This document shows positions 16,251 through 48,047 of a stretch of DNA of 64,000 nt, in pieces. Location of the stretch: NCBI GenBank assembly GCA_030645735.1, contig JAUSNP010000001.1:7502-71501 (forward strand). The letters are read 5' to 3'. Position numbers and translations under genes: made by a program. This stretch comes from Candidatus Moraniibacteriota bacterium. GTDB taxonomy: Bacteria; Patescibacteriota; Minisyncoccia; Moranbacterales; UBA2206. Position 1 is the first letter of the stretch. Each line of letters begins with the position of its first letter. The notes beneath the pieces are model-generated. The model was given only the letters and a program-made list of their open reading frames with translations. It was not told the origin of the DNA and searched no databases.

Positions 16251-17840
16251 ATGAAAAAACAATTGGCAGAAATCATCAAAAAAGCTGTTTTGGAGCTGTT
16301 CGACCTTGAACAAGCTGATTTTGCTGTGGAATATCCGAAAGACGAGAAATTTGGGGATTATGCGGCCAATGTGGCGATGGTTTTGGCCAAAAAGTTAGGG
16401 AAGAGCCCAATTGAGATTGCTGAGGCAATCAAGTTACAAGTTACAAGTTACAAGTTACAAACTTTTGAAAAGATTGAAGTGGTGGCGCCGGGGTATATCA
16501 ATTTTTATTTGTCAGAAAAATATTTGCAGGATGTTGTGGTTGAGATTCAAGACAAAAAAGAAAAGTTTGGAGAAAGTGAAATTGGTAAAGGCGTGAAAAT
16601 AAACAATGAATTTATTTCAGCCAATCCAACAGGCCCTTTGACGGTGGGGAATGGTCGTGGAGGATTTTGTGGTGATGCAATTTCTCGTGTGCTTCGAAAA
16701 ACTGGATTTGAAGTCGTGAATGAATATTATATAAACGATGCTGGTGGACAAGTCTTGAAATTGGGGCACAGTGTGTTGAAAGATGAAGAAGCTGCCTATA
16801 CTGGAGAATATATTGATGAGCTGAATAAAAAATATGGCGAGCTGACTGATGTAAAAGAAATTGGTCAATTAGCAGCCAAGGAAGTTTTAGAGAATATCAT
16901 CAAAAAAGTAGTTGTAGAAAAAATGCAGATTTCTTTTGATGTTTGGATGAGTGAGAAAAAAATTCAAGATGAAAATTTTGTTGAAAGGTCTATTGAAATT
17001 TTGAAAGAAAAAAAGCTGACCTATGAATCAGAAGGTGCTTTGTGGTTGAAGACGACGAAATTCGGTGATGATAAGGACCGTGTGCTGATAAAGAGTGATG
17101 GGCAGAAATCATATTTTGCTGGTGACTGTGGCTATATGTTAAACAAGATTGAAAGAAATTTCAGTCGCTTGATTATGGGGTTGGGTGCGGATCATCATGG
17201 TTACATTTCCAGATTGCGTGCCGTAGCCAAAGCCTTAGGGTTTGAAGGTGATTTTCGTTTTGTGATTTCACAATTAGTACGCATCATGAAAGATGGCAAA
17301 GAAGCTAGGATGAGTAAACGCGCTGGCAATGTTGTGAATGTTGATGAGCTGATTGATGCAGTTGGATCGGATGTAACTAGATTTTTTTTCTTGATGTATT
17401 CACCCGATACTCATATGAGTTTTGATTTAGGCTTGGCGGAAGAGAAATCACAGAAGAACCCAGTTTTCTATGTGCAATATGCGCATGCTAGGATTTGTAG
17501 TGTTGTGCGCAAAGCGCAAGATTCAATAACCAAGATACAAGATACAAATAATGTTGATTTATCTTTGCTTAAAGATGAAAAAGAATTGAGTTTGATTCGT
17601 GAACTGAATAAGTTTCCAGAATTGGTGGAAGAACTTTCTCAAAGTTATGAGGTTCACAAGCTTCCATATTTTGCTATTAAGTTGGCTGATAAATTTCATT
17701 CTTTCTACAATGCTTGTAAGGTGATTGATGAGGAAAATTTGGAATTGACCAAAGCGCGTTTGAATTTGATAACTGCAGTGAAGATTGTCTTGGCAGAAAC
17801 TTTGGATTTGATTGGGGTGAGTGCGCCGGAAAAGATGTGA
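16251..17840 (+). CDS. argS: Arginine--tRNA ligase
   Basis: HHGYISRLRAVAKALG, RMSKRAGNVVNV (KMSK-type), and the C-terminal DALR anticodon-binding region. Confidence 0.95.
   Translation: MKKQLAEIIKKAVLELFDLEQADFAVEYPKDEKFGDYAANVAMVLAKKLGKSPIEIAEAIKLQVTSYKLQTFEKIEVVAPGYINFYLSEKYLQDVVVEIQDKKEKFGESEIGKGVKINNEFISANPTGPLTVGNGRGGFCGDAISRVLRKTGFEVVNEYYINDAGGQVLKLGHSVLKDEEAAYTGEYIDELNKKYGELTDVKEIGQLAAKEVLENIIKKVVVEKMQISFDVWMSEKKIQDENFVERSIEILKEKKLTYESEGALWLKTTKFGDDKDRVLIKSDGQKSYFAGDCGYMLNKIERNFSRLIMGLGADHHGYISRLRAVAKALGFEGDFRFVISQLVRIMKDGKEARMSKRAGNVVNVDELIDAVGSDVTRFFFLMYSPDTHMSFDLGLAEEKSQKNPVFYVQYAHARICSVVRKAQDSITKIQDTNNVDLSLLKDEKELSLIRELNKFPELVEELSQSYEVHKLPYFAIKLADKFHSFYNACKVIDEENLELTKARLNLITAVKIVLAETLDLIGVSAPEKM
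16439..16469 (+). repeat. 7-nt tandem repeat (agttaca)x4, in-frame in argS
   Basis: caagttacaagttacaagttacaagttacaa encodes KLQVTSYKLQ. Confidence 0.8.
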
Positions 17841-18094
17841 GGATATAAATCACAAATCAATCACTAATTTTTCTCGAATATTCACGAATGTTTATGAGTG
17901 GCTTGATGGGATTTACAAAAACCTTATTATGAGGTAATATTTGGATACAAAAGCTTTGATGGAGCAATCACTCCGGAGCTTTGGAAAGAAAGTCGCAAGA
18001 CCCTAGACTCCAACGGGTATGCCCGTAATAGCTTGAATTAAGAGTCGCAAATCATAGAACGCATAACGTGGAACGCAAAAACGTTTCGCGATCC

Positions 18095-18145
18095 ACGTTT
18101 CACGATACGCGATTGAACTAAGGTGGTACCACGTCGTTGACGTCC
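18095..18145 (+). promoter_or_regulatory. T-box-like sequence (AACTAAGGTGGTACCACG) in the 300-bp leader upstream of the HD-ileS pair
   Basis: Close match to the T-box consensus AAnnAGGGUGGUACCGCG, followed by short hairpins and T-runs; stem I / specifier loop not confidently identified. Confidence 0.35.
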
Positions 18146-18192
18146 TTATGCATTTTTTGCAGAGGGCTTTTTTTATTTTAAAATATAAAGAT

Positions 18193-18774
18193 ATGAAATT
18201 AGATAAAATAATAGAAGAAAAAATAAAAGAAGAGGTTCTTAAAAAACTTCAAAATGGAAAACCGAATTGGGACATTCCCCATACATTGAATGCTGTTGAA
18301 TGGATGCGCTGCTTGATTGAAGGTGAGGGCGGTAATGAAAGAATACTTATTCCTGCTATATATTTTCATGATACTGGATATCCAGAGCTTGATGAAAATT
18401 ATAATTATGACGATCTCATTGAAAGTAAAAAAATGCATGCAATAAAGGGGGCTGAATTTACAAAAAATGTTTTATCTCAAATAAATTATTTTTCTAAAGA
18501 AGAGGTTGAAGAGATTGTATATTTAGTTAAAAAACATGACGAGCATGATAATCTAGAAACGCATAATCGTAGATTGATATTTGAAGCAGATGGATTGTCA
18601 ATGATTGATTGGGAGCATGTGAAGCCAAATTTTGATCAAAAAAACAGGACAGAATTTTTGAATAAATATTTTATTAGTGAAAGAGGTCTTGATAGGTGGC
18701 ATACTATTACAGGAAAAAAATATTTAAAAATTTTATTTAAAAAAGCCAAGGAATATAATATAAATAATCCTTAA
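18193..18774 (+). CDS. HD-domain phosphohydrolase-like protein
   Basis: IYFHDTGY (H...HD motif); start chosen at MKLDKII. Confidence 0.5.
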   Translation: MKLDKIIEEKIKEEVLKKLQNGKPNWDIPHTLNAVEWMRCLIEGEGGNERILIPAIYFHDTGYPELDENYNYDDLIESKKMHAIKGAEFTKNVLSQINYFSKEEVEEIVYLVKKHDEHDNLETHNRRLIFEADGLSMIDWEHVKPNFDQKNRTEFLNKYFISERGLDRWHTITGKKYLKILFKKAKEYNINNP

Positions 18775-18804
18775 CCTATATTTTAAAAAAGTAATAAAAA
18801 TTTT

Positions 18805-21800
18805 ATGTTCAAAAAAGTAGATCCAAAGATGACATTTCCAAAAATGGAAGAAGAAGTTTTGAAGTTTTGGGAAGAGAATCAAGTCTTTGAAAAGTCATTG
18901 GAAAAAAACAAAGACAAGCAAGCTTATGTTTTTTATGATGGACCGCCGTTTGCCACGGGCAATCCGCATTATGGTCACATTGTGGGCAGCGTGATGAAAG
19001 ATGTGGTGCCGAGATATTGGACGATGCGCGGGCGATATGTGGAAAGAAAATGGGGTTGGGATTGCCATGGTTTGCCGATTGAAAACATCGCCGAAAAAGA
19101 ATTGGGCATCAAGCGCAAAAACGAAATTGAAGAAATGGGCGTGGAGAAATTCAATGAGTTTTGTCGTTCCAAAGTTTTGAGCTATGTTTCAGTTTGGGAA
19201 AAAATCATCACCCGTTTGGGTCGTTGGGCCGATATGAAAAACGCCTACAAGACTATGGATTTGCCATACATGGAATCCATTTGGTTTGTCTTCAAAGAAT
19301 TGTGGGACAAAGGCTTGATTTATGAAGGCTATCGCTCGATGCATATTTGTACGCGTTGTGAAACAACTTTGTCACAACAAGAAGTTTCTGAAGGCTATAA
19401 GGACATCAAAGATTTGTCGGCTATCGCGAAATTTGAATTGGTGGACGAACCAGGAGCTTTTGTCTTGGCTTGGACCACCACACCCTGGACATTGCTGGGC
19501 AATGTGGCTTTGGCAGTGGGTGCGGAGATTGATTATGTAAAAATTAGTTACAATGATAAAGCTGGAAATGCACAACAATTTATTTTAGCAAAATCAATTT
19601 ATGAAATTAAAAAAGATGAATTATTCCCATCGGTTAAGGAGTTAAAGGCAGATGAAGTTCCGCCAATGCCACCAAAAATTATAGAAGAATTTAAAGGTAA
19701 TAATCTAGTTGGCAAAAAATATAAACCTCTTTTTGATTATTATGTCGGCAAGGGAATTGAAAATGAGGAAAATGGTTGGCAGATTTATGCGGGTGATTTT
19801 GTGACTACTGAAGATGGAACGGGTGTGGTGCATATTGCGCCAGCGTTTGGTGATGATGACTTCCGATTGTCACAACAATATAATTTGCCATTTGTGCAAC
19901 ATGTGGGGATGGACGGAATTATTAAAAAAGAGGCTGGTGAATTTGCTGGTATTAGCTTGAAGCCGAGAGCTAAAGATAAACCAGAGGAAATTCGAGAGGC
20001 TGATCTGACCATGATAAAAGCAATGGGTGACAAAATATTTCATTCTGAAAAATATTTACATAGTTATCCGCATTGTTGGCGCTGTGACACCCCACTCATT
20101 AACTACGCGACTTCATCATGGTTTGTGAAAGTGACAGGCGTGAAAGAAAGGGCATTGGAGACAGCCAAAGAAATCAATTGGACACCCAATCACATCAAGG
20201 AAGGGCGTTTTGGAAAATGGTTGGAAGGTGCGCGTGACTGGTCAATTTCTCGTCAGAGATTTTGGGCCTCAGTCATGCCGATTTGGAGATGCAAAGAATG
20301 TGGCGAGTTGGAAGTTTTTGGCTCTGTGGCATCTTTGGAAGAGCGAAGTGGCGCAAAGGTGACGGATTTGCATAAGCATGTAGTGGATAACATAACTTTC
20401 AAATGTCAAAAATGTTCTGGCGAAATGCATCGCGTGCCGGATGTGTTGGACACTTGGTTTGATTCCGGTTCGATGCCATACGCTCAGATGCACTATCCAT
20501 TTGAAAACAAAGAAAAATTTGAAGCCAATTTCCCAGCCGAGTTCATTGCGGAAGGGCAAGATCAAACTCGCGCTTGGTTCTATTATTTGCATGTTCTTGG
20601 CACGGCCTTGAAAGATAAGCCAGCTTTCAAGAATGTGATTGTCAATGGTATCGTTTTGGCGGAGGATGGCAAAAAGATGGCTAAGAAATTGCAAAATTAT
20701 CCAGACCCATCTTTGATGTTTGAAAAATACGGTGCTGATTCTATTCGCATGTATTTGATGAGCTCGCCAGTAGTGGCCGCAGAAAATTTGAATTTCAAAG
20801 AAGCGGATGTGGCTGACTTCATGCGTGGAACTTTCCGCATGTTGTGGAATTCATATTCTTTCTTTGTATTGTATGCTGACATCGATAAATGGAAACCATC
20901 AGACCAAATCCCAAATCCCAAATCCCGAATCACAAATTTATTAGACAAATGGATTTTGTCTGAATTGAATATGCTCATCAGAGATTATAACAAGCACATG
21001 GAGGCTTATGAATTGAATTATGCCTCACGCTTGTTTCCAAAATTTATCGACAATCTTTCCAATTGGTATATTCGTCGATCACGCAAAAGATTTTGGAAAT
21101 CGGAAGATGATGGCGACAAAGCTGAGGCCTATCAGACTTTGCATTTTGTGTTGGTTGAATTGGCAAAATTGATGGCACCTTTTGCACCGTTCATGGCAGA
21201 AGAAATTTTCAAGAATCTGACTGGCAAAGAATCAGTACATTTGGAGGATATGCCAATGGCGGATGAGAGTGTGATTAATGTCGACATGAATGGCGATATG
21301 GAATATTTACGTAATACAATTAGCTCTGGGCTAAGAGCTAGGGCTGAGGCAAAAATAAAAGTTCGACAGCCATTGCAAGACGTTGTGATAATTGCTAAAG
21401 AAAGTTTCCCAGAAGAAATGAAGCAAATTATTTGTGATGAGTTGAATGTAAAAAAAGTTTTGGTTGTAAATGATTTCAATAATTTGGCTAGTGAGTATGT
21501 AGTAGGGGAGGAAAGTGGATTGAGGATTGCCTTAAACATTATCATAACCGAAGAACTGAAGCTTGAAGGCCAGGCGCGGGAAATTATCCGTTCAATTCAA
21601 GAGATGCGCAAAGAGGCTGGCTTTGAGGTTGACAATCGTATCAAAGTTGGCTACGATGGTTTGAATAATGTTTTTGAGAAGTTTAGTTCTTTAATCCAGC
21701 GAGAAGTGCTCGCTGTTGACATAGTTGCCGGTGTAATTGAAACTCCTGATCTACAAAAGGAGCTTGCAATTGACGGAAAAACTGCATCAATAAGTATCAA

Positions 21801-21813
21801 AAAGGAGCGCTAA
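18805..21813 (+). CDS. ileS: Isoleucine--tRNA ligase, type 2 (eukaryote/archaea-like)
   Basis: HIGH-type PHYGH; KMAKKLQNYPDP resembles the type-2 KMSKRLKNYPDP; about 1000 aa. Confidence 0.95.
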   Translation: MFKKVDPKMTFPKMEEEVLKFWEENQVFEKSLEKNKDKQAYVFYDGPPFATGNPHYGHIVGSVMKDVVPRYWTMRGRYVERKWGWDCHGLPIENIAEKELGIKRKNEIEEMGVEKFNEFCRSKVLSYVSVWEKIITRLGRWADMKNAYKTMDLPYMESIWFVFKELWDKGLIYEGYRSMHICTRCETTLSQQEVSEGYKDIKDLSAIAKFELVDEPGAFVLAWTTTPWTLLGNVALAVGAEIDYVKISYNDKAGNAQQFILAKSIYEIKKDELFPSVKELKADEVPPMPPKIIEEFKGNNLVGKKYKPLFDYYVGKGIENEENGWQIYAGDFVTTEDGTGVVHIAPAFGDDDFRLSQQYNLPFVQHVGMDGIIKKEAGEFAGISLKPRAKDKPEEIREADLTMIKAMGDKIFHSEKYLHSYPHCWRCDTPLINYATSSWFVKVTGVKERALETAKEINWTPNHIKEGRFGKWLEGARDWSISRQRFWASVMPIWRCKECGELEVFGSVASLEERSGAKVTDLHKHVVDNITFKCQKCSGEMHRVPDVLDTWFDSGSMPYAQMHYPFENKEKFEANFPAEFIAEGQDQTRAWFYYLHVLGTALKDKPAFKNVIVNGIVLAEDGKKMAKKLQNYPDPSLMFEKYGADSIRMYLMSSPVVAAENLNFKEADVADFMRGTFRMLWNSYSFFVLYADIDKWKPSDQIPNPKSRITNLLDKWILSELNMLIRDYNKHMEAYELNYASRLFPKFIDNLSNWYIRRSRKRFWKSEDDGDKAEAYQTLHFVLVELAKLMAPFAPFMAEEIFKNLTGKESVHLEDMPMADESVINVDMNGDMEYLRNTISSGLRARAEAKIKVRQPLQDVVIIAKESFPEEMKQIICDELNVKKVLVVNDFNNLASEYVVGEESGLRIALNIIITEELKLEGQAREIIRSIQEMRKEAGFEVDNRIKVGYDGLNNVFEKFSSLIQREVLAVDIVAGVIETPDLQKELAIDGKTASISIKKER
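20906..20937 (+). repeat. 7-nt tandem repeat (aatccca)x4, in-frame in ileS
   Basis: aaatcccaaatcccaaatcccgaatcacaaat. Confidence 0.75.
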
Positions 21814-21814
21814 A

Positions 21815-21946
21815 TGAATACCGAAGTTGAATCAGCGTTGTCGCAGATCATGCACAATCCCAGCGGATTCGAGTTGGTAGTTATTGGGGTGTTCGCCGTG
21901 ATGATGTTGCGAGTCATTTGCGAGGAATTTTTTTGTCATCGCTAAG
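21815..21946 (+). CDS. Possible small hydrophobic ORF (43 aa) overlapping the ileS stop (taATG)
   Basis: atg at 21815; MNTEVESALSQIMHNPSGFELVVIGVFAVMMLRVICEEFFCHR. Confidence 0.2.
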
Positions 21947-21965
21947 GGGTGGTGAGATTGAGAGG

Positions 21966-22003
21966 GGGTGTTCGCGCTTATAAAGAGCGAATGCCCCTTT
22001 TGA
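21966..22003 (+). terminator. Imperfect GC-rich hairpin followed by TTTT
   Basis: gggggtgttcgcgc...gagcgaatgcccc tttt. Confidence 0.4.
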
Positions 22004-22034
22004 TTTTCCTCTTGATTAGCAATATAATAGGTAA

Positions 22035-22763
22035 ATGGACTACAAATACCAAGGTATAATTTTGAATAAGCGCGAAGTGGGCGAAGTGGATCGGATTTAT
22101 ACGATTTACACTTTTGAAGCTGGAAAAATCCGTGTGTTGGGCAAAGGTGTGCGCAAACCTAATGCCAAATTGGCCGGCAATTTGGAGTCAGTCACGCAGG
22201 CGGAAATTTTTATGTCCAAAAACAAGGGCATGGGCAAAATCACAGGTTCGATTGCAATCAACAATTTCAGCAACATCAAATCCAACCTAGATTTGGTCAA
22301 TCGAGTTTTTTATGTCTTCAAAATTCTAGCCAGAATAATTTCTGAGGAAGAAAAAGATGAAAAAATCTTTTTGCTGTTGGAAAAATATTTGACAACTATG
22401 GATGCAAATGAAGTTGGAGAAGACAAGGCAGATATTTTGACACTGGGATTGTTGTTTCAAATTTTGGCTGAAATGGGCTATCGGCTGGAAATGGAAAAAT
22501 GCGTGCATTGTGAGAAAAAATTGCTGCTAGAGAACAATTATTTCAGCATTTCCCGCGGAGGAGTTTTATGTGCAAATTGCCAAAATGTGGAAAACAAAAA
22601 GATATTGATTAGTAATGAGGCGATCAAATTGATTAGGATATTTTTACAAAATAGATTGGAAAATTTGATCAAACTTAAAGTTCCGCAAGCGGATATAAAC
22701 AGATTGAAAATAATTCTCAATGAATCAATCAATTGGTTCTCTGGTGAGAACTTCCGAATTTGA
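22035..22763 (+). CDS. recO: DNA repair protein RecO
   Basis: N-terminal OB fold (GIILNKREVGEVDRIYTIYT) and C4 zinc finger CVHCEKK...CANC. Confidence 0.8.
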   Translation: MDYKYQGIILNKREVGEVDRIYTIYTFEAGKIRVLGKGVRKPNAKLAGNLESVTQAEIFMSKNKGMGKITGSIAINNFSNIKSNLDLVNRVFYVFKILARIISEEEKDEKIFLLLEKYLTTMDANEVGEDKADILTLGLLFQILAEMGYRLEMEKCVHCEKKLLLENNYFSISRGGVLCANCQNVENKKILISNEAIKLIRIFLQNRLENLIKLKVPQADINRLKIILNESINWFSGENFRI

Positions 22764-22822
22764 TAAAAACCCCAATTTCTGGTATTATTTAGCTATTAAA
22801 TAAAAATAAAAAGCCAAAATCT

Positions 22823-24733: not shown

Positions 24734-24737
24734 ATTT

Positions 24738-25853: not shown

Positions 25854-25857
25854 CTAG

Positions 25858-25886: not shown

Positions 25887-27166
25887 TTTTTGATATGAAA
25901 AAAATTGAACTTCTCGCTCCGGCGGGGAATTTGGAAAAATTGAAATATGCCATTGCTTATGGCGCGGATGCGGTGTATGCCGGCGTGCCAGATTTTTCGT
26001 TGCGCGTACGGATTAATAATTTTACGCAGGAGTCCTTGAAAGAGGCGGTGGAATATGTGCATCAACATAAAAAGAAAATTTTTGTGACTCTGAATATTTA
26101 TGCGCACAATGTGCACTTAGATGAAATCAAGAGTCATTTGAAGTTTTTGAAAACTTTGGATATTGATGGTGTGATTGTGGCCGACCCGGGAATTATAATG
26201 TTAGTGAAAAAATATTTGCCGAAGGTGGAAATTCATTTGTCCACTCAGGCTAATGCGACCAATATTGAAGCTGTGAAATTCTGGGCTAAAAATGGAGTGA
26301 AAAGAATTGTCTTGGCACGGGAAGTGTCATTGGACGAAATTCGCGAAATCAAAAAAGCTGTGCCAAAAATGGAATTGGAATATTTTATTCATGGCGCAAT
26401 GTGTATGAGCTATTCTGGCCGTTGTATTTTGAGCAAGTGGATGAGCAACCGCAGCGCCAATTTGGGGGATTGCACCCAGCCTTGTCGTTGGAAATACACG
26501 GAAGTCAAAAGTCCAAAGTCCAAAGTCGAAAGCGAGATTCTAGAAAAAACCGTGGTGGATGATATGGGAAGATTTGAAGTGGATTTGGAAGAGGATCGGC
26601 ATGGGACTTATTTTTTCAATAGTCGTGATATGAATTTGTCTGCTCACATTCAAGATTTGATTGATGCTGGCATTGATTCATTGAAAATTGAAGGGCGTGC
26701 CAAGAGTGTCTATTACGTAGCCACTGTGGTGCGCGCCTATCGCAAAATCATTGATGCGCTGAAAAAGAAAAATTTGACGCAAGTCATCAAAGAGCAACAA
26801 AAAGAATTAGACACTTTGGTTAATCGCGGATATTCCAAAGGCTTTTTACTAGGCAATGAACCAGAGCACAACTTTGAGGGCGCACTCAGTGAGACGGACT
26901 ATAAATTCGCAGCGCAGATTGAAGGCAAAAAGAAAATTAATGGCCAAGTCCTCAATGTTGTTTTTATGCATAACGAAATTTTCTTGAAAGACAAAATTGA
27001 AGCCATTAGTCCAAAGGGCAATGAAAAGGTCAAAATCAAAAAAATTTTGAATTACAAACTGGAAAAAGTGACCGAAGCACATGGCGGTCATGACAAGCGT
27101 TTTTTTGTGCAATTCGACAAAATTTTGGCAGGCAAAACTCTCCTACGCAGAAAGTTGACTAAGTAG
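25874..27166 (+). CDS. Peptidase U32 family protein (RlhA/TrhP-like RNA hydroxylation factor); likely true start at 25895
   Basis: U32 signature E..FIHGAMCMSYSGRCILS. Confidence 0.85.
   Translation: MRVYFFDMKKIELLAPAGNLEKLKYAIAYGADAVYAGVPDFSLRVRINNFTQESLKEAVEYVHQHKKKIFVTLNIYAHNVHLDEIKSHLKFLKTLDIDGVIVADPGIIMLVKKYLPKVEIHLSTQANATNIEAVKFWAKNGVKRIVLAREVSLDEIREIKKAVPKMELEYFIHGAMCMSYSGRCILSKWMSNRSANLGDCTQPCRWKYTEVKSPKSKVESEILEKTVVDDMGRFEVDLEEDRHGTYFFNSRDMNLSAHIQDLIDAGIDSLKIEGRAKSVYYVATVVRAYRKIIDALKKKNLTQVIKEQQKELDTLVNRGYSKGFLLGNEPEHNFEGALSETDYKFAAQIEGKKKINGQVLNVVFMHNEIFLKDKIEAISPKGNEKVKIKKILNYKLEKVTEAHGGHDKRFFVQFDKILAGKTLLRRKLTK
26503..26535 (+). repeat. 7-nt tandem repeat (aagtcca)x3-4, in-frame in the U32 peptidase gene
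   Basis: gtcaaaagtccaaagtccaaagtcgaaagcgag. Confidence 0.7.
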
Positions 27167-35910: not shown

Positions 35911-36249
35911 TTGACTTTTTTACCAATTTGCGAGACAATTAATAACGATGCTGTGACCCTAATTCAAGAACCTTCAAAGATGATTGAGGATAATAAGCAG
36001 GTTAAAAACTATTGGAAAGAAAACGGCTTGAGCCTGTTTTTTAAATTGAGCGGTTGGATTGTCGGACCAATTTTGCTGGCAGTTGTTGTTGGGAAATGGC
36101 TGGACAAGAAATATCAAACTGAGCCATGGCTGTTTCTCTTGTCAGTTGGAGTCGCTTTCGCGATTTCAGTCTATGGCATGATCAAGGATGCTTTGGCAGA
36201 ACTAAAAAGAATTGAAGCAGAAGAAAAAAATAAAAAGTCTAAAGACTAA
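35911..36249 (+). CDS. AtpZ/AtpI-like small membrane protein preceding the atp operon
   Basis: 2-TM protein with GPILLAVVVGKWLDKKYQTEPW resembling PF09527; position upstream of atpB. Confidence 0.5.
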   Translation: MTFLPICETINNDAVTLIQEPSKMIEDNKQVKNYWKENGLSLFFKLSGWIVGPILLAVVVGKWLDKKYQTEPWLFLLSVGVAFAISVYGMIKDALAELKRIEAEEKNKKSKD

Positions 36250-36375
36250 TTGCTAAAGTCTAAAGCAAAACTAAAGTTAAAAGTATAAAGTTAAAAAATA
36301 CTTAAAACTTTAGACTTAAATACTTTTTTTTAGACTTTGAACTTTAGATATTAGACTTATAAACTATAGATCAAA
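36250..36375. repeat. Long A/T-rich imperfect palindrome built of ctaaagt units (taaagtctaaag...ctttagactt)
   Basis: Inverted copies of taaagtc/gactttag flanking a T8 run. Confidence 0.55.
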
Positions 36376-37317: not shown

Positions 37318-37545
<228 letters not shown>

Positions 37546-37617
37546 TTTCACAAGACTCTTCAGTAATGGAGAGTCTGAATGAGACTATTTTAAAAAATAA
37601 CCAAACTATATAATATT

Positions 37618-38106
37618 ATGGAAGAATTAGTAAAAACATTTCATATTGAGGCGGGCATGTTGTTGGCTCAATTTATTAATTTCGTGATTGTTTTATTGGT
37701 GTTGTATAAATTTGCCTATGGACCAGTTTTGAAATTGTTAAATGAAAGAACAGCCAAAATTGAAAAAGGCTTGGCGGACGCTGAAGCTTCACACAAAAAA
37801 TTGTCTGAAATTTCTGAAAAGGAAGCCGCAGTTTTGGTGGAAGCGAGAAAACAAGCACAAGAAATCATCAAGAAAGCCGAGGATATGGCAATCACTCAAT
37901 CACAGGTGATTGTGACCACTGCCAAAGAACAAACTGAAAAAATGATGGAAACTGCCAAGAAACAAATTGAACAAGAAAAAGAAAAATTATTGGCAGAAGT
38001 GAAAACAGAGGTGGCAAACCTAGTAGTGATGGCAACAGAAAAAATTATTCATGAAAAATTGGACAGTCATAAAGACCAGGAGTTAATAGGCAGGTCAATT
38101 GTATAA
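37618..38106 (+). CDS. atpF: ATP synthase F0 subunit b
   Basis: N-terminal TM plus long charged coiled coil; gene order. Confidence 0.8.
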   Translation: MEELVKTFHIEAGMLLAQFINFVIVLLVLYKFAYGPVLKLLNERTAKIEKGLADAEASHKKLSEISEKEAAVLVEARKQAQEIIKKAEDMAITQSQVIVTTAKEQTEKMMETAKKQIEQEKEKLLAEVKTEVANLVVMATEKIIHEKLDSHKDQELIGRSIV

Positions 38107-38236
38107 AATCCAAAAATCAAAATCTCAAATTCCAAATAAATTACAATATCAAAAAACTAAAATTCAAAACGATTTTGAATTTTGAAAATTGTAATTTAGA
38201 ATTTATTTGGAGCTTGTAATTTAGAATTTGTAATTT
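38107..38236. repeat. A-rich 7-mer periodic tract (aaaatcc aaaaatc aaaatct...) containing nested palindromes
   Basis: caaattccaaataaattacaa / ttgtaatttagaatttatttgg and aaattcaaaacgattttgaattt. Confidence 0.5.
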
Positions 38237-38638
38237 ATGAAAATAACAGTAACACAATATGCCAAGTCTCTATATGAGGCAATTAAAGATAAGCCACAAA
38301 TAGAGGTTGATTTGGTGGTGACAAATTTCTTGAAACTTTTGCAAAAAAATGGTCAAATGAAATTGGCTAAAAAAGTCAGTGAAAAATTTTCAGCCATTTG
38401 GAACAAGGAGCAGGGAGTTGTGGAAGCAGAAGTGATCACAAGATACAAGATACAAGATACAATGACCAAAGAAATCGAAAAGTTTATCAAAGAAAAATAT
38501 TCAGCTAAGGAAGTGGTGATAAAGAATGTAGTGGATGAAAAGATTCAGGGCGGAGTAATTATAAAAGTCGGAGATGAATTGTTAGACGCTTCAGTAGCGG
38601 GCATGCTAGAAAATCTAAAAAAAGAATTGGCAAAATAA
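38237..38638 (+). CDS. atpH: ATP synthase F1 delta subunit (short, 133 aa)
   Basis: C-terminal [20 protein letters not shown]; gene order. Confidence 0.75.
38439..38463 (+). repeat. 7-nt tandem repeat (agataca)x3, in-frame in atpH
   Basis: caagatacaagatacaagatacaatg. Confidence 0.75.
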
Positions 38639-38667
38639 TTTGTATTAAAATAATTTTAAATAAATTT

Positions 38668-40170: not shown

Positions 40171-40174
40171 AATA

Positions 40175-40323
40175 TGTCATTGCGAGCGTAGTATCGGCGA
40201 CTGAGCCGATACGAAGCGTGGCAATCTCATGCAATAATTCACAGAATTTAATGTAAGGTACAGTGAATTAAAATATGAGATTGCCACGGTCGTTCCGCGG
40301 CGGAACTTCCTCGCAATGACAAA
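40175..40323. mobile_element. ~150-bp nested palindromic MITE-like element filling the atpA-atpG spacer (TIR tgtcattgcgagcg ... ctcgcaatgacaaa)
   Basis: 14-bp terminal inverted repeats plus internal inverted pairs (tatcggcgactgagccgata; gtggcaatctcat/atgagattgccac; gttccgcggcggaac). Confidence 0.6.
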
Positions 40324-40332
40324 GAAAAAAAT

Positions 40333-41286
40333 ATGGCTAGTACACGCGATATTCGTAGACGTATAAAATCAGTAGGGAACACCCAAAAAATCACTCGAGC
40401 AATGGAGATGGTTTCAGCTGCCAAGATGAGAAAATCTGTGGCGAGTGTTTTGGCGGTGCGACCATATGCGCATGCGGCCTGGAGCGTGTTGACCAATCTT
40501 TCACGGGCTTTTGAAAAAAATCATGCTGGTCTTTTGGAAGTGCGTGAGGTGAAAAATGTTTTGGCCATCGCCATAACTTCCAACAAGGGTTTGTGTGGGG
40601 CTTTCAATGCGCAAATTATCAAAAAAATCAAAGACGAAATTGCCAATCCAGAAAGATTGAGCATCAATCGAGTGGGCAAAGAAAAACTTGGCATCAAAAA
40701 CAAGAACATCAAGATTGATTTTATCACCATTGGAAAGAAGGGTGAGGCGGTGGTGCGCAAAGCTGGCAAGGATATTATTGCATCTTTCAATGAGTTGACC
40801 TATTTGCCAAAAATTGACGATGTGCGCGTCGTGGGCAAGGTTGTGACAGAAGATTATCTAGCCAAAAAATATGACAAGGTGGTGGTTTTCTATACTGACT
40901 ATGTTTCGGCTATGAGTCAGCAAACAAAAGTTCGCCAGATTTTGCCAATTTCTAAAATTGATTTGGAGAAACAAATTGCCGAGATGGATGTGTTGGCCAA
41001 AGAATATGGCTTGGATGCGCCAGTGCGAGAATACAAAGTTGAGCCCAATCCTGAGTCAGTGTTGGAATATATTTTGCCTCGCTTGATCGACATGCAAATC
41101 TATCACGCGATTTTGGAATCAAACGCTGCCAAAGAATCAACTCGGATGATGGCCATGAGAAGCGCGACTGATGCAGCTGGAGAAATGAAGGATGACCTGA
41201 CATTTGTATATAATCAGATTCGGCAGATGAAGATTACACAGGAGATTGCAGAGATTTCAGCCGGACGTGCTGCATTGGAAAATTAA
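40333..41286 (+). CDS. atpG: ATP synthase F1 gamma subunit
   Basis: MASTRDIRRRIKSVGNTQKITRAMEMVSAAKMRK. Confidence 0.92.
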   Translation: MASTRDIRRRIKSVGNTQKITRAMEMVSAAKMRKSVASVLAVRPYAHAAWSVLTNLSRAFEKNHAGLLEVREVKNVLAIAITSNKGLCGAFNAQIIKKIKDEIANPERLSINRVGKEKLGIKNKNIKIDFITIGKKGEAVVRKAGKDIIASFNELTYLPKIDDVRVVGKVVTEDYLAKKYDKVVVFYTDYVSAMSQQTKVRQILPISKIDLEKQIAEMDVLAKEYGLDAPVREYKVEPNPESVLEYILPRLIDMQIYHAILESNAAKESTRMMAMRSATDAAGEMKDDLTFVYNQIRQMKITQEIAEISAGRAALEN

Positions 41287-41302
41287 TTTTGTTTATTAGT
41301 AA

Positions 41303-42694
<1,392 letters not shown>

Positions 42695-42782
42695 GCAGCT
42701 GTTGGTAAAATGTCATTGGCTGTAGGAATAGAAATAAGTCATTGGTCTAAAGACTTTTTACTAACGACCAATCCTACTGCTA

Positions 42783-43253
42783 ATGACCAATTACTTACGA
42801 CTTAAAAATATGAATAATTCACAAAAAATAAAATTTAAAATAGTAACTCCCGAGAAGACAGTGTTCGACGAAGAAGTTTTGCAGGCGACTCTGCCGGTGA
42901 CGGACGGGGAGGTTACAATTTTGCCAAATCACAGATCATATATTGCATCACTCAAAGCAGGTGAGGTGTGTTTGAAATTGGAAAAAGGCAATGATGTGTG
43001 TATGGCGATCTCAGGTGGGTTTATTGAATTTAATGATAATGTTTTGGTAGTTTTGGCTGACACAGCTGAACGCGCTGAAGAAATTGATTTGACTCGCGCG
43101 GAAGAAGCGAGAAAGAGAGCGGAGGAATTGAAGAAAGAAAAGATTGAAGATGACAGCGAGTATGCGCGCGTGGCTGCTTCGATTGAGAAAGAAATGGCGC
43201 GTATCCGTGTGGCCAGAAAACATCGCACCCAACATGGTATGCATTTGAATTAG
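42783..43253 (+). CDS. atpC: ATP synthase F1 epsilon subunit
   Basis: KFKIVTPEKTVFDEEV; the start may be the internal M at 42810. Confidence 0.85.
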   Translation: MTNYLRLKNMNNSQKIKFKIVTPEKTVFDEEVLQATLPVTDGEVTILPNHRSYIASLKAGEVCLKLEKGNDVCMAISGGFIEFNDNVLVVLADTAERAEEIDLTRAEEARKRAEELKKEKIEDDSEYARVAASIEKEMARIRVARKHRTQHGMHLN

Positions 43254-43271
43254 GGAGGTAACAATAGAATT

Positions 43272-43296
43272 AAAAAACCATTTATGGTTTTTTAAT
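43272..43296 (+). terminator. Rho-independent terminator of the atp operon
   Basis: aaaaaccat-ttt-atggtttttt. Confidence 0.7.
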
Positions 43297-43337
43297 TTGT
43301 GTAAAAATATTTGTAATAATTTATTTTTTATAAAAAT

Positions 43338-44984
43338 ATGTTTTTGAACAAAACAAAAATGCGGGAGTATTTTAAAAAAGATTTCAGGGCAGATTTAATT
43401 GCGGGAATCGTGGTTGGTTTGGTAGCGTTGCCATTGGCCATTGCTTTTGCCATCGCATCTGGGGTGAGTGCGCAACAGGGACTCTATTCTGCAATCATCG
43501 CTGGCGGAATCATTGCTATTTTTTCTGGTTCCAATTATCAAGTTTCTGGTCCGACAGGCGCTTTTATTGTAGTTTTGTTGGGAATTGTAAATAAGTTTGG
43601 CGTAGACGGGTTGATGATGGCTGGATTTATGGCCGGAGTTATTTTGATTTTGATGGGAGTGTTCAAGTTTGGTTCAATTATCAAATTTATTCCCTATCCA
43701 GTGACAGTTGGCTTTACTTCAGGAATCGCGATGATTATATTTTTTGGACAAATAAAAAACTTTTTAGGTTTGGATTTTGGCGGTAAAATTCCTTTGGATT
43801 TTATTGAAACATTAGAAATGATTTATCATGGTTTGTTGCGGGGGCTAAATAGTTATTCTTTGATCATTGGTTTGGCAACTTTGGCGATTTTTTTTGTTTG
43901 GAAGAAATACAACAAAAAATTTCCACCAGCGCCAGTAGCGCTGGCTGGAGGAATAGTTGTGAGCTTGTTTTTTCTAGATAAACACGTGCCGATTATTGGA
44001 GACATTCCTGCGGGACTGCCATCTTTTCATATGTTGGATTTCAATTTTGCCAATATGAAGCTTTTGTTGCCGGCAGCTTTTACGGTGGCAATTTTGGGTG
44101 CCATTGAATCGTTGTTATCTGCTGTGGTGGCTGACGGTATGACAGGCACAAAACATAATTCTAACAAGGAATTGATTGCGCAGGGGCTTGGAAACATTGT
44201 TGTGCCATTTTTCGGCGGAATTCCAGCAACCGGTGCGATTGCGAGAACTGCAACAAACATCAAAAATGGTGGCAGAACAAGAATGGCAGCTATCATTCAT
44301 GCCGTTGTAATTTTGTTGATTGTTTTGCTTTTTGCTAAGTATGCTAAATTTATTCCTTTGGCTGCCTTAGCGGCGATCTTGATTACAGTAGCGTATAATA
44401 TGAGTGAAATGGATCATTTTAAAAAATTGCTAAAAGCCCCGCGACGAGATGTGGCTGTTTTGCTAAGTACTTTTCTTTTGACAGTCTTTGCTGATTTGAC
44501 AGTGGCAGTTGGCATTGGAGTGGTGATGGCAGCGTTGTTATTCATTAAGCGTGTTAGTGAAATAAAAAACATTGTCAGCAGTTTGGAGGAAAATGTTAAG
44601 GTTGGCAGTGAGGGCAGCAAGCGATTGCATGAAAGCCTTGTTGATTTTCCGCAAATTTCACTGTACGAAATTAATGGACCAATGTTTTTTGGTGCTGCGA
44701 GCGTAATGCAAGAGCGAATTGGCTATGAGCAAGAGGGCGTGTTGATTATTCGCATGAAGCATGTTGGGGCGATTGATGCCACAGCAACACATGCTTTGGA
44801 AATTTTGATCGATGAAGTGCATGCCTCGGGTGGAAAAGTTATTTTGGCCACAGTCCAGAAATATGTGTTGTTGAATTTGAAGAAAACCGGCATAATCGAT
44901 CTTTTGGGCGGAGATGCGTATGTTGCCAAAAGCAGTACTGAAGCAATTGAAATGGCCAAGAAAATAATCGCGGAGAAAAAATAA
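43338..44984 (+). CDS. SulP-family anion transporter with C-terminal STAS domain
   Basis: GLVALPLAIAFAIASGV SulP signature; STAS-like C-terminus. Confidence 0.85.
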   Translation: MFLNKTKMREYFKKDFRADLIAGIVVGLVALPLAIAFAIASGVSAQQGLYSAIIAGGIIAIFSGSNYQVSGPTGAFIVVLLGIVNKFGVDGLMMAGFMAGVILILMGVFKFGSIIKFIPYPVTVGFTSGIAMIIFFGQIKNFLGLDFGGKIPLDFIETLEMIYHGLLRGLNSYSLIIGLATLAIFFVWKKYNKKFPPAPVALAGGIVVSLFFLDKHVPIIGDIPAGLPSFHMLDFNFANMKLLLPAAFTVAILGAIESLLSAVVADGMTGTKHNSNKELIAQGLGNIVVPFFGGIPATGAIARTATNIKNGGRTRMAAIIHAVVILLIVLLFAKYAKFIPLAALAAILITVAYNMSEMDHFKKLLKAPRRDVAVLLSTFLLTVFADLTVAVGIGVVMAALLFIKRVSEIKNIVSSLEENVKVGSEGSKRLHESLVDFPQISLYEINGPMFFGAASVMQERIGYEQEGVLIIRMKHVGAIDATATHALEILIDEVHASGGKVILATVQKYVLLNLKKTGIIDLLGGDAYVAKSSTEAIEMAKKIIAEKK

Positions 44985-45040
44985 AGCCTCCTAGAGACAA
45001 ATACGCGGTTGGTAAGAAAATATACTTTAAAATAAAGGGT

Positions 45041-45110
45041 TAAAGGGGATAAAATGGGAAAAATAAAGGGCGGATTACAAAGATCCGCCCTTTGCTATTC
45101 TCCTTGAAAT
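45041..45110. repeat. Copy 3 of the G-rich GGGATAAAGGG repeat, ending in a GC hairpin (gggcggat...atccgccc ttt)
   Basis: ataaagggttaaaggggataaaatgggaaaaataaagggcggattacaaagatccgccctttg. Confidence 0.6.
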
Positions 45111-45176
45111 AAAGATAGAAATGAGCTAGAATCAAGGAGTAATGTAAAAGTAGGTTTAACTAGGCCTAAAAACACT

Positions 45177-48047
45177 ATGGAAAGCTATAATCCCAAGGAA
45201 ATTGAGGCAAAATGGCAAGAGAAATGGCTTGAACAAGCCTCAGAGAAGATTGATAAGGACGATACTAAGAAGAAATTCTATATTTTAGATATGTTCCCAT
45301 ATCCGTCTGGCACTGGCCTGCATATGGGACACACCGAGAGCTACACGGCGAGCGATGTTTTCTATCGTTTCAAAAAGATGCAAGGTTTCAATGTTTTGCA
45401 TCCACAAGGTTTTGATGCTTTTGGTTTGCCAGCAGAAAATTATGCCATCAAAACTGGCGTGCCACCGATTGAAACGACCAAGAAGAACATGGAGAATTAT
45501 ATTCGCCAAATGCAGTCTTTAGGTTTCAATTATGATTTTTCGGAGCAGGCTATCACGAGTGATCCAGAATATTATAAATGGACGCAATGGATTTTTTCCG
45601 AGTTTTATAAAAATGGTTTAGTCTATAAAAAAACCCAAAAAACAAATTGGTGTGCTTCTTGTCAGACTGTCATTGCCAATGAGCAAGTGGTAGAAAACAA
45701 ATGTGAACGATGTGGCACAGAAATTGAACAAAAAGAAGTGCCGACTTGGTTTTTCAAAATCACAGACTTTGCTGAAGAACTAATTGCTGATTTGGACGAT
45801 GTTGATTGGCCGGAATATACTAAGAAGAATCAGCGAGCGTGGATTGGTAAAAGTGAGGGTGCTGAAATTAAATTCGAAATTCGAAATTCGAAATCCGAAA
45901 CAAATTCAAAATCAGAAAAACAAAATACAAAACAATTTATCGAAGTATTTACTACGAGAGTGGATACGGTTTTTGGCGTGACTTATGTTGTGGTGGCTCC
46001 AGAACATCCATTAATCGCGCAACTTGAATCGCAAATCGCAAATCGCGATGAGATTTTTGCATACATTGAAAAATCAAAAAACAAAACAGAACTAGATCGA
46101 ATGGAAGCCAAGGAAAAAACGGGTGTAGAGCTTGAAGGTATTAAGGCTGTCAATCCATTCAACGGCGAAGAAGTTCCAGTGTTTGTGGCTGATTATGTTC
46201 TTGGAAGCTATGGCACCGGCGCCGTGATGGCTGTGCCAGCACATGATGAAAGGGATTTTGAATTTGCAAAGAAATATAATTTACCGATTAAAAAAGTTAT
46301 TGAACCATGTTTTGACCAACTTGCCGAGCCAGGAAAAATTAAATGGGACGAGGCATTTGTTGAAAGGGATGCAATCTTAGCCATAGTTAAACATTGGGAA
46401 AAAGATGAGTATCTATGCCTTCAGTGGAAAAAGGTTGACTGGAGAACTTTTATTACTGGTGGACCGGAAGGCGGTCAGTCTTTTGAAGAAGCGGCAAGAA
46501 CGGAAATTTTAGAAGAGACTGGTTATAAAAACTTGAAATTAATTAAAGAGCTACCAATGGTGCATAGTCGCTTTTATCATGTACCAAAAAAAGTGAACCG
46601 ATTTGCTCATTTCAATGTTTTCTATTTTGAGCTAAAGGACGGCGATAAAGATAATATTTCAGATAATGAGCAAGAAAACCACGATACTGTTTGGGTAATG
46701 AGTGACAAAATTGAGCAATTTTTAACTGCCGATTCGCATAAATATATTTTTAAAAATTTAAATAACCCAGAAGTCTCTTTTGTAGAAGATGGAGTATTGA
46801 ATAATTCTGGAGAATATAATTTTTTGACTTCCGAACAAGCGCGGGGAAAAATGACAGCTTGGTTGGAAGAAAAAGGTTTGGGCAAAAAAGTTGTGAATTA
46901 TCGTTTGCGTGATTGGTCAATTTCACGGCAGAGGTATTGGGGTTGTCCGATTCCGATTGTGTATTCACCGGAGGGTGAACCGCATTTGGTTCCAGAGCAA
47001 TATTTGCCATGGAAATTGCCGGAGGATGTTGATTTTGTGCCGACCGGAACTTCACCTTTGGCCAAGTCGCAGGAACTCAAAGAAAGAGTGGAAAAAATTT
47101 TTGGAGAATGTTGGACAGCTGAGTATGATACGATGGACACCTTTGTGGATTCGTCGTGGTATTTCTTGCGCTATCCGGATGTGCACAATGACAAAGAATT
47201 TTGTTCACAAACAAGAAAGGCTTGGTTGCCGGTGGATATGTATATCGGCGGTGCAGAACACACCTACATGCATCTTTTGTATGCCAGATTCTTTGTGAAA
47301 GCTTTGCACAAAATTGGACACTTGAGTTTCAATGAGCCATTTTTGAAATTGCGTCACCAAGGCATGGTCTTGGACAAGGCTGGCAACAAGATGTCCAAGT
47401 CCAAAGGCAATGTCATCAATCCGGATGAAATGGTAGAAAAATTTGGCGCGGATTCCGTGCGTATGTATATGATGTTTGTGGCACCGTTGGAAGATGCGGT
47501 TATGTGGAACGAAGAAAATATTGTGGGTGTGCGCAGATTTTTGGAAAGAGTTTGGCGCTTGCAAGAAAAAATTGTAGTTGAAAATATGGTAGTTGATTCG
47601 CTGACACACAAGACTATCAAAAAAGTTGGTGAAGATGTTGAAGTGATGAAATTTAATACAGCTATTTCCCAGATGATGATTTTGGTTAATGCGATGGATA
47701 AAGAAAAACAGATATCAGTTACGAGTTACGAGTTACTAGTTACTATTCTAGCTCCATTTGCTCCGCACATGGCCGAAGAAATTTGGAACAAGCTTGGGCA
47801 CTCAGAAAGTATTTTTTCCTCAGCTTGGCCGGAGTATGATTCCGAATTGATCAAGGATGAAAAAATAAAATTGGTGATTCAGGTGAATGGCAAAGTGCGA
47901 GACACAATTGAAGTTAATGCTGAAATTTCAGAAGATGAGGCAAAAAAAGTTGCACTTGAAAGTGAAAAAATAAAAAATTATATTTCAGGCAAGGAAATCA
48001 GAAAAATAATTTATGTTAAAAACAAACTAGTGAGCATCGTCGTTTAA
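45177..48047 (+). CDS. leuS: Leucine--tRNA ligase with a ~150-aa NUDIX-like domain inserted between the CP1 editing domain and the catalytic core
   Basis: HMGH, KMSKSKGN and editing-domain TTRVDTVFGVTY all present; inserted segment AILAIVKHWEKDEYLCLQWKK...TGGPEGGQSFEEAARTEILEETGY fits a NUDIX fold/box. Confidence 0.95.
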   Translation: MESYNPKEIEAKWQEKWLEQASEKIDKDDTKKKFYILDMFPYPSGTGLHMGHTESYTASDVFYRFKKMQGFNVLHPQGFDAFGLPAENYAIKTGVPPIETTKKNMENYIRQMQSLGFNYDFSEQAITSDPEYYKWTQWIFSEFYKNGLVYKKTQKTNWCASCQTVIANEQVVENKCERCGTEIEQKEVPTWFFKITDFAEELIADLDDVDWPEYTKKNQRAWIGKSEGAEIKFEIRNSKSETNSKSEKQNTKQFIEVFTTRVDTVFGVTYVVVAPEHPLIAQLESQIANRDEIFAYIEKSKNKTELDRMEAKEKTGVELEGIKAVNPFNGEEVPVFVADYVLGSYGTGAVMAVPAHDERDFEFAKKYNLPIKKVIEPCFDQLAEPGKIKWDEAFVERDAILAIVKHWEKDEYLCLQWKKVDWRTFITGGPEGGQSFEEAARTEILEETGYKNLKLIKELPMVHSRFYHVPKKVNRFAHFNVFYFELKDGDKDNISDNEQENHDTVWVMSDKIEQFLTADSHKYIFKNLNNPEVSFVEDGVLNNSGEYNFLTSEQARGKMTAWLEEKGLGKKVVNYRLRDWSISRQRYWGCPIPIVYSPEGEPHLVPEQYLPWKLPEDVDFVPTGTSPLAKSQELKERVEKIFGECWTAEYDTMDTFVDSSWYFLRYPDVHNDKEFCSQTRKAWLPVDMYIGGAEHTYMHLLYARFFVKALHKIGHLSFNEPFLKLRHQGMVLDKAGNKMSKSKGNVINPDEMVEKFGADSVRMYMMFVAPLEDAVMWNEENIVGVRRFLERVWRLQEKIVVENMVVDSLTHKTIKKVGEDVEVMKFNTAISQMMILVNAMDKEKQISVTSYELLVTILAPFAPHMAEEIWNKLGHSESIFSSAWPEYDSELIKDEKIKLVIQVNGKVRDTIEVNAEISEDEAKKVALESEKIKNYISGKEIRKIIYVKNKLVSIVV
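45869..45938 (+). repeat. 7-nt tandem repeat (aaattcg)x4 decaying into aaaNNca heptamers, in-frame in leuS
   Basis: aaattcgaaattcgaaattcgaaatccgaaacaaattcaaaatcagaaaaacaaaatacaaaacaa. Confidence 0.75.
46026..46050 (+). repeat. 7-nt tandem repeat (aatcgca)x3, in-frame in leuS
   Basis: gaatcgcaaatcgcaaatcgcgatg. Confidence 0.7.
47716..47745 (+). repeat. 7-nt tandem repeat (agttacg/agttact)x4 in-frame in leuS; reverse complement of the infC-rpmI spacer array
   Basis: cagttacgagttacgagttactagttact. Confidence 0.8.

Follow-up and report, generated by a model that had tools for sequence, protein, structure and literature searches.

Our question is how tandem arrays of a seven-nucleotide unit, a length that is not a multiple of three, come to stand in frame inside essential genes and why they persist there. 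It is raised by a 64,000-nucleotide stretch of contig JAUSNP010000001.1 (hereafter the window), whose host is an uncultivated member of the Moranbacteria within the Candidate Phyla Radiation (CPR) and whose predicted proteins are those of a Candidatus Moranbacteria metagenome-assembled genome (MAG). The genes that carry the arrays encode, by Pfam assignment, ArgS, IleS, a U32 peptidase, ATP synthase delta, and LeuS, and other arrays lie between genes. The account that we favour, with slightly better than even confidence, is that these heptamer simple sequence repeats (SSRs) arise by local templated amplification of 7-nt proto-repeats, pass through a filter of selection, and are then kept uniform by length-neutral homogenisation.

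Arrays were detected with Tandem Repeats Finder (TRF) and with an exact lag-7 scan, for which perfect runs in the window were required to have a period of 7 and a length of at least 17 bp; the level expected by chance was taken from 100 order-3 Markov simulations. Two sets of related contigs were examined alongside the window: set 1 (1.27 Mb) consisted of 80 related genome loci fetched around argS, and set 2 (1.09 Mb), independent of set 1, of 80 metagenome loci fetched around leuS, with labels of the form L0xx and L1xx denoting fetched loci. Close relatives were compared by all-versus-all blastn of 163 sequences, and an array was scored as having an inverted partner when one lay within 200 bp of it.

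Eight perfect runs of period 7 reach the 17-bp minimum in the window, where 0.17 are expected (maximum of 2 in any simulation), an approximately 47-fold excess, and the exact scan at periods 8 to 12 found no perfect run of that length. All eight arrays that the initial annotation had placed in housekeeping genes were recovered between TRF and the lag-7 scan; they lie at the right loci, but their coordinates had to be shifted by a few bases, the largest shift, of at most about one unit (7-9 nt), being that of the first array. The expectation that period 7 would stand out in a wider scan was also borne out, as TRF returned 319 rows at period 7 in set 1 against 53 at period 6 and 142 at period 8, and 331 in set 2 against 60 and 125. 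Since the excess is found in both sets of related contigs, the arrays are a property of the lineage and not of these particular genes. Array density in set 1 is greatest in low-GC genomes (approximately 2.8 per 10 kb below 42% GC versus 0.7 above 50%), and in set 2 it does not fall until GC exceeds 50%, being approximately 2.3-2.8 per 10 kb below that value and 0.5 above it. An ArgS identical to that of the window, arrays included, is encoded in an independent Logan assembly (run SRR13727526; L082), and similar arrays are present in dozens of unrelated MAGs from different studies, which together make an assembly artefact unlikely.

The arrays are as distinctive in size as in period. Their length has a sharp mode at 30-32 bp, corresponding to approximately 31 bp or 4.4 units, with four-copy arrays making up 62 of the 160 coding arrays, 55 of the 126 intergenic arrays, and 135 of 318 arrays in set 2; the mode holds alike in solo and in inverted-paired intergenic arrays. 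At periods 6, 8, and 9, two copies are commonest in set 2 and each higher copy number is rarer than the one before, with no peak at four units. The initial annotation had attributed the prevalence of four units (one plus three) to the reading frame, an explanation that we abandon as a sufficient one: because the 31-bp mode is also found in intergenic arrays, is repeated in set 2, and has no counterpart at periods 6, 8, and 9, frame selection is not the sole cause of the four-unit size. Within genes, frame selection may sharpen the size distribution; five-unit arrays account for 8 of 160 coding versus 15 of 126 intergenic arrays. Growth in steps of three units predicts a secondary mode at 7.4 units (approximately 52 bp), and this mode is absent from set 2. 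The lengths of perfect runs peak at 17 and 31 bp, both of which are of the form 7n + 3.

Inside genes, the arrays bear the marks of a filter. Since 7 shares no factor with 3, translation passes through an array in each of the three codon phases and yields a peptide with a period of seven amino acids, and the coding arrays of the window are all in frame and read through in each phase. Of 117 arrays, 92 have a consensus unit with no stop codon in coding-strand reading, versus 62 in antisense reading, and coding arrays are 45% A; A-richness and stop-freeness in three frames account for part of the loose heptamer consensus. Array density is 6.4 times lower in coding than in intergenic DNA (1.4 versus 9.0 per 10 kb), and across 81 ArgS genes all 24 of the perfect period-7 runs fall at three positions, corresponding to window residues 63-66, 192-196, and 423-431. 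Arrays in IleS and at LeuS site A are likewise confined to the same sites among orthologues. Both the density difference and the ArgS restriction uphold the earlier proposal that selection filters the arrays, and orthologue alignment agrees with it in placing them in variable, lineage-specific segments of housekeeping proteins.

The companion claim that each array adds 7-10 residues did not survive these alignments, in which the net change is 0 to +3 amino acids at most sites, up to +5 in IleS, and +13 at LeuS site A. By site, the array of argS site 1 amounts to +3 amino acids relative to distant relatives and 0 within its own clade, that of argS site 2 to +1 to +3 (relative to orthologues or solved structures), that of IleS to 0 to +5 within Moranbacteria and approximately -2 relative to cytoplasmic-type IleS structures in the PDB, and that of the U32 peptidase to +3 relative to the L009 orthologue (a search of solved structures for the U32 protein gave no match). 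AtpH shows no length change relative to nine orthologues that are non-repetitive at that position, LeuS site B shows 0 relative to CPR orthologues and +1 relative to Thermus thermophilus LeuS, and LeuS site C shows 0 to +1, leaving LeuS site A, with +13 relative to T. thermophilus LeuS, as the sole clear insertion. As there is mostly little or no net change in length, the arrays overwrite variable linkers, and coding arrays for the most part replace sequence that was already there and variable and do not lengthen the protein.

Two apparent length variants were set aside along the way. The 423- and 430-residue forms of the U32 peptidase, considered as copy-number variants, differ only in their start codon (90%-identity clusters with 1-2 members). 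The ATP synthase delta of the window (38237-38638) has 133 amino acids, and its match to the OSCP profile is limited to positions 57-172; shortening of atpH by the arrays upstream was ruled out, as approximately 133 amino acids is normal in nine relatives, which makes the short form a lineage trait and not array damage.

Comparison of orthologous sites reveals how the units turn over. At argS site 1, arrays with other units stand at the orthologous position in L007, L012, L017, L081, and L004, and the units seen across species (AAGTTAC, AAATTAC, AAATTTC, AAATCTC, and AACTTAC) change while position and length stay constant and each array remains uniform; between ArgS proteins that are 89% identical overall, only approximately 4 of 13 residues match across the array. 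The units at the IleS site also differ by genome (TCCCAAA, CTCCAAA, CTACAAA, GAAAGTC, GCGACAA, and others). LeuS site A arrays in five genomes all extend from a conserved flank, AAAATTTCAAATT (peptide IKFQI), into units that include AATTTTC, AATTTCC, and AAATTCG among others, and growth from a conserved flank supports local amplification. Blocks can also be conserved: the nucleotides of the leuS site B array are identical in L083 (24 nt), and the leuS site C array is 100% identical in L118 over approximately 32 nt, with approximately 5 of 10 flanking codons differing synonymously. Distant orthologues that carry the same peptide with no nucleotide repeat would speak for coincidental codon periodicity, and here the evidence is divided. 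Distant CPR orthologues keep the peptide K-x-Q-I-x-N at LeuS site B with no change in length, so that part of the periodicity at that site could be protein-borne, but several of them are also 7-periodic in their nucleotides.

Some of the sites that carry arrays also carry insertions of other kinds. Insertions of widely differing kinds are tolerated across the CPR by the LeuS editing-domain loop in which the window has its longest array, with whole domains of approximately 100-230 amino acids inserted at the equivalent of window residues 232-252 in L108, L109, L112, L122, L123, and L125. Smaller in-frame inserts occur at the same hot spots, namely at ArgS site 1 of L006, L010, L014, L026, L031, L042, and L045, at LeuS site A of L083, and at ArgS site 2 of L078. 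One of these is a palindromic element translated as CHPELVSGS...LKQVQDD, and others are GC-rich palindromes translated as LPAGRQG or PWPGRQ, one of them inside the heptamer array of L078. Elsewhere in the window LeuS, a NUDIX-hydrolase domain is inserted at residues 410-525 (window 46404-46751; Pfam E = 1.5e-10), where T. thermophilus LeuS has no residues and query residues 388-533 are left unaligned; judged by match lengths, L083 also has this domain and the shorter orthologues L117-L121 do not.

Between genes, the arrays are frequently paired in inverted orientation: 39 of 103 intergenic arrays have an inverted partner, versus 4 of 119 coding arrays. The window has three such pairs, which have no sequence in common (Table 1). 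The pair in the infC-rpmI spacer, which the initial annotation had described as inverted arrays of agttacN at 14621-14722, is real, with TAACTNG equivalent to AGTTACN and the second arm running to 14726; the two pairs in the ATP synthase gene region are additional to its list. The infC-rpmI pair, between two genes that are both on the minus strand in the L082 annotation, folds in silico into a hairpin of -33.1 kcal/mol (z = -5.3), and this spacer holds a hairpin in the window and in L012, L023, and L071, with different units. An Rfam search for the hairpins gave no family match and returned only the transfer-messenger RNA (tmRNA). From their position and predicted folding, a role of such intercistronic stems in processing, stability, or coupling is plausible. 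The rplT-rpmI-infC operon is also the site of a duplicated element of approximately 110 bp that resembles a miniature inverted-repeat transposable element (MITE) and whose arms are imperfect AATTTTN arrays, with copies at 5693-5806 and 6029-6138 of L023, 1204-1322 and 1528-1680 of L071, 430-516 and 1751-1856 of L094, and 4294-4374 of L012.

Table 1. Heptamer arrays of the window, in order of position, with the unit and copy number, the encoded peptide or genic context, and the means of detection
Feature	Position	Strand	Array and context	Detected by
infC-rpmI hairpin, arm 1	14621..14651	-	TAACTCG/TAACTAG x4.4, 31 bp; ends ~8 nt before rpmI start codon	TRF, RNA fold
infC-rpmI hairpin, arm 2 (inverted)	14693..14726	-	CTAGTTA-type x4.9; begins right after infC stop codon	TRF, RNA fold
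argS site 1	16430..16460	+	Perfect (CAAGTTA)x4.4, 31 bp; peptide IKLQVTSYKLQ (aa 60-70)	TRF, lag-7 scan
argS site 2	17531..17547	+	(CAAGATA)x2.4; aa 427-433, junction of catalytic and DALR domains	lag-7 scan
ileS	20904..20937	+	(CCAAATC)x4.9; peptide DQIPNPKSRITN (aa 700-711), linker before anticodon-binding domain	TRF
U32 peptidase gene	26502..26532	+	(AAGTCCA)x4.4, 31 bp; peptide EVKSPKSKVES	TRF
atpI-like/atpB spacer	36234..36371	+	Inverted pair, degenerate AAAGTCT/AGACTTT; long predicted hairpin	TRF, fold z = -3.8
atpF-atpH spacer	38103..38236	+	Inverted pair, degenerate AAAATCA / TTTTGAA and TTGTAAT; long predicted hairpin ending at atpH start codon	TRF, fold z = -3.6
atpH	38438..38462	+	Perfect (ACAAGAT)x3.6; peptide TRYKIQDTM (aa 68-76)	lag-7 scan
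leuS site A	45870..45932	+	(AAATTCG)x4.4, then degenerate A-rich 7-8-nt units; editing domain	TRF
leuS site B	46027..46046	+	(AATCGCA)x2.9; peptide ESQIANR	lag-7 scan
leuS site C	47717..47743	+	AGTTACG/T x3.9; peptide SVTSYELLVT, anticodon-binding domain	TRF

On the account that we favour, a lineage-wide mutational process that is independent of sequence and specific for length would locally re-copy, by slippage or realignment, a 7-nt proto-repeat bounded by approximately 3 nt of microhomology; the 7n + 3 run lengths fit a microhomology of 3 nt at the borders. Throughout the genome, the preferred product would be an array of approximately 4.4 units (about 31 bp), and among these products selection would then pick the survivors. 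Those kept within genes would be in frame, stop-free in three phases, A-rich, with mostly hydrophilic peptides, and limited to a few permissive linkers and loops, and those kept between genes would be about six-fold denser, with approximately 40% in inverted pairs that would fold, as RNA, into long hairpins between cistrons. An established array would then stay uniform through length-neutral homogenisation, by conversion between neighbouring units or by paired gain-and-loss slips, such that the unit would drift as a block between species while site and length stayed constant. Homogenisation among neighbouring units would give both the fast block-wise change of ArgS site 1 and the block-wise conservation of leuS sites B and C. 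What the data show directly is the specificity for period 7, the mode of size, the restriction to certain sites, the turnover of units, their freedom from stop codons, and the potential to form hairpins; we infer the agent itself, slippage or conversion, as well as any reason for seven nucleotides and for four units.

Several observations weigh against this account. Stepwise slippage predicts a monotonic fall in copy number in non-coding DNA, whereas the distribution that we see has its mode at four units and a dip at three. Slippage also adds length, whereas most coding arrays amount to 0 or +1 to +3 amino acids and not +7, and among orthologues of ArgS, IleS, and LeuS there are none that are exactly seven amino acids shorter at an array site. 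No copy-number polymorphism was found among the pairs available, which are either at most approximately 92% identical or near-identical, and L018 and L027, the sole near-identical pair examined at an array site, have the same array. The blastn alignments contain few 7-nt indels in a period-7 context, break inside arrays, and give no clean spectrum of 7-, 14-, and 21-nt steps. Two further findings hint at copying between loci: arrays of AGTTACN stand at three loci of this genome but occur in only one other fetched genome (162 loci, 2.3 Mb), at the orthologous leuS site, and a 31-35-nt imperfect arm is 100% identical in L012, L023, and L094. Lastly, nothing in the account explains the preference for 7 nt.

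These hints bear most directly on an alternative that we consider possible if somewhat unlikely, namely, that each array is a copy of a small dispersed or mobile element (approximately 21-31 bp) which ectopic gene conversion or an integrase placed at a tolerant site, and that a few unit families cross the boundary between coding and non-coding DNA. Such elements would be comparable to the small dispersed repeats of cyanobacteria or to the terminal repeats of MITE-like elements; their size would be fixed at approximately 31 bp in all contexts, as is observed, and overwriting with no change in length is expected from conversion. In the window, AGTTACN arrays are found in the argS and leuS genes and form the two arms of the infC-rpmI hairpin, and a 20-nt sequence, AGTTACGAGTTACTAGTTAC, is identical between leuS 47724-47743 and the other strand of 14627-14646, where no such match is expected by chance; however, the argS unit AAGTTAC is one substitution from the AAATTAC and AACTTAC that relatives have at the same site, so its match to leuS may be coincidental. 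Units are shared more often within than between genomes (14.9% versus 10.1%; permutation p ~0.006), but they are extremely diverse and mostly unique to their site: the 117 coding arrays comprise more than 60 distinct units, and intergenic arrays are similarly varied. Such diversity speaks against a mobile element of fixed sequence. A composite, (AAATYCG)n-AAACAAATT, is common to LeuS site A of the window and ArgS site 2 of L007 and L076, yet the arrays at LeuS site A are visibly derived from the conserved local flank. Finally, L023 has an array-armed element of 112 bp twice, with an identical loop, and L071 likewise has two copies with a shared loop, and to these is added the arm shared with L012 and L094, but no target-site duplications are visible flanking the element copies of L012, L023, and L071, and no conserved ends were seen at them. 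The notion of one dispersed repeat family spanning genes and spacers is thus weakly held: AGTTACN does link argS, leuS, and the infC-rpmI hairpin, but the breadth of units among the coding arrays does not conform to it. Some copying between loci may nonetheless have taken place.

A different mode of origin, which we think unlikely, is that the arrays are written in a single step as patches of approximately 31 nt (four units plus 3 nt) that overwrite the local sequence through a specific templated-synthesis event, for example when a 7-nt template is copied over and over in the course of priming or short-patch repair. The same mechanism would then lie behind the four-unit heptamers of Xanthomonas, Nostoc, and the CPR, and it would be a major source of new loops and intercistronic hairpins in the CPR.

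It is quite improbable, in our view, that the arrays exist for a function of their own, whether as a platform of four heptamers for a multi-domain nucleic acid-binding protein of the S1, Csp, or CsrA type or as a stem for RNase III or termination, with the coding copies as by-products or as regulatory sites in the mRNA. The placement of the intergenic arrays is suggestive, as they lie exactly between cistrons, adjoin stop and start codons, and are predicted to fold into stems of 25-30 bp, and the infC-rpmI hairpin is present in at least four genomes despite their differing units; yet inverted partners accompany only 4 of 119 coding arrays, and the hairpins match no Rfam family. TAACTNG resembles the TAACTGA of the Beggiatoaceae (PMC4679880), and the preference for four units is common to the GGGAATC repeats of Xanthomonas and Nostoc (PMC4692102), but the units considered together share no common motif, and so no sequence-specific binder fits. 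Nucleotides within arrays can be conserved beyond flanking synonymous sites, as at leuS site C, whereas the array regions are the fastest-evolving parts of their proteins, and the origin of the 7-nt periodicity is not explicable by function.

The reading of the arrays as codon periodicity by chance, or as an artefact of sequencing or assembly, for which only the constant-length K-x-Q-I-x-N peptide of LeuS site B speaks, is effectively refuted by the statistics of the excess over the Markov expectation, by its confinement to period 7, and by the recurrence of arrays in intergenic DNA, an independent assembly, and MAGs from different studies.

Two further explanations were also considered and rejected. 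The arrays are not phase-variable contingency loci, at which gain or loss of a unit switches expression: their hosts are ArgS, IleS, LeuS, ATP synthase delta, and the U32 peptidase and not non-essential surface, restriction-modification, or virulence genes, and every genome examined has them in frame. Translational bypass of the kind known from T4 gene 60 or the mitochondrial byp elements is discounted because the arrays keep the frame and are more often stop-free in the coding than in the antisense direction.

Outside the arrays, the long open reading frames (ORFs) of the window (1-64000) are nearly all on the plus strand and GC skew is positive throughout (0.09-0.27), on which basis the window appears to lie on one replichore and to be co-oriented with replication. 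A long tmRNA of approximately 415 nt lies on the minus strand at 15294-15708 (Rfam 164.7 bits; predicted tag ANFITKAKSVFAQAFTSNFAVAIA) and adjoins smpB. Tandem repeats with periods other than 7 occur inside ORFs at 8108-8145, 8552-8635, and 57043-57137; two of these are G/A-rich, with units of 19 and 42 nt, and one has a 24-nt unit in 3.8 copies.

The arrays matter, first, because the sole reason that has been proposed for a four-unit preference, the G-quadruplex, is inapplicable to AT-rich arrays. The Moranbacteria supply a dense comparative data set, with hundreds of arrays per Mb at orthologous sites that carry different units, and filters inherent in the system, namely the reading frame, stop codons, and protein structure, render the question testable. 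The arrays also give small CPR genomes a concrete route for changing probable surface linkers in their aminoacyl-tRNA synthetases and ATP synthase, and for building intercistronic RNA hairpins. In practical terms, they are hazards for assembly, the calling of frameshifts, and alignment-based phylogeny of marker genes, and they are possible strain markers.

To our knowledge, prokaryotes have been recognised since 2007 to carry 7-nt repeats in excess, and no mechanism has been accepted. In the older case of the short tandemly repeated repetitive (STRR) sequences of cyanobacteria, which Mazel et al. are said to have described in 1990, tandem heptanucleotides reportedly occupy many dispersed and mostly intergenic loci, with few defined unit sequences per genome, in heterocystous species. 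The present arrays differ from these in that no defined heptamers recur at many loci per genome; the units instead number in the dozens, and the host belongs to the CPR. We found no report of heptamer arrays in the CPR or Patescibacteria in the searchable literature.

Heptanucleotide repeats were found by Mrazek, Guo, and Shah (2007) to be the most abundant class of long SSRs in many prokaryotes, with a phylogenetically sporadic distribution (as relayed in PMC4679880), and polymerase slippage, with a contact length of approximately 7 nt, was proposed as their cause (PMC4679880, PMC4692102). Our arrays correspond to such long SSRs in consisting of tandem 7-nt units, in exceeding the expectation from composition, and in favouring period 7 over neighbouring periods. 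That survey described intragenic repeats as being mostly of unit lengths divisible by three and did not cover CPR genomes, whereas here 7-nt arrays are common inside essential genes. Our best reading is accordingly that the arrays are a CPR variant of the prokaryotic heptanucleotide repeats, a class that is mechanistically unexplained.

Closer likenesses can be drawn with three described systems. The GGGAATC and GGGGAYT heptamers of Xanthomonas and Nostoc also favour four units, which has been attributed to the G-quadruplex (Rehm et al. 2015; PMC4692102). The four-unit bias is alike, but those repeats are G-rich and under-represented in coding regions, whereas the units of the Moranbacteria are AT-rich, highly diverse, and lack G-tracts, so that G-quadruplexes cannot explain the bias here. 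In marine Beggiatoaceae, cyanobacteria, and Bacteroidetes, direct repeats of TAACTGA occur in 2-6 copies per set, frequently a short way ahead of a start codon and in some cases inside ORFs, where they are translated at the peripheries of proteins, and binding by S1-, Csp-, or CsrA-like proteins has been proposed for them (MacGregor 2015; PMC4679880). That system has one dominant unit in mostly direct arrangement, whose forward orientation contains stops in all frames (PMC4679880), whereas the present one has many units that frequently occupy conserved enzymes in frame. The window arms TAACTCG, TAACTAG, and TAACTGG are similar though not identical to TAACTGA, and the other arrays of the window are unrelated to it; the placement near start codons may be comparable, as arms end shortly before that of rpmI and at that of atpH, but these are inverted pairs that span the whole spacer. 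In the Borg elements, tandem repeats create new disordered regions in proteins and in-gene units are divisible by three (PMC9879509). The two systems are alike in that their repeats evolve fast, arise locally, and write new peptide segments, and they differ in that the unit of the Moranbacteria is of seven nucleotides, is read in three phases, and is held at a small and fixed copy number.

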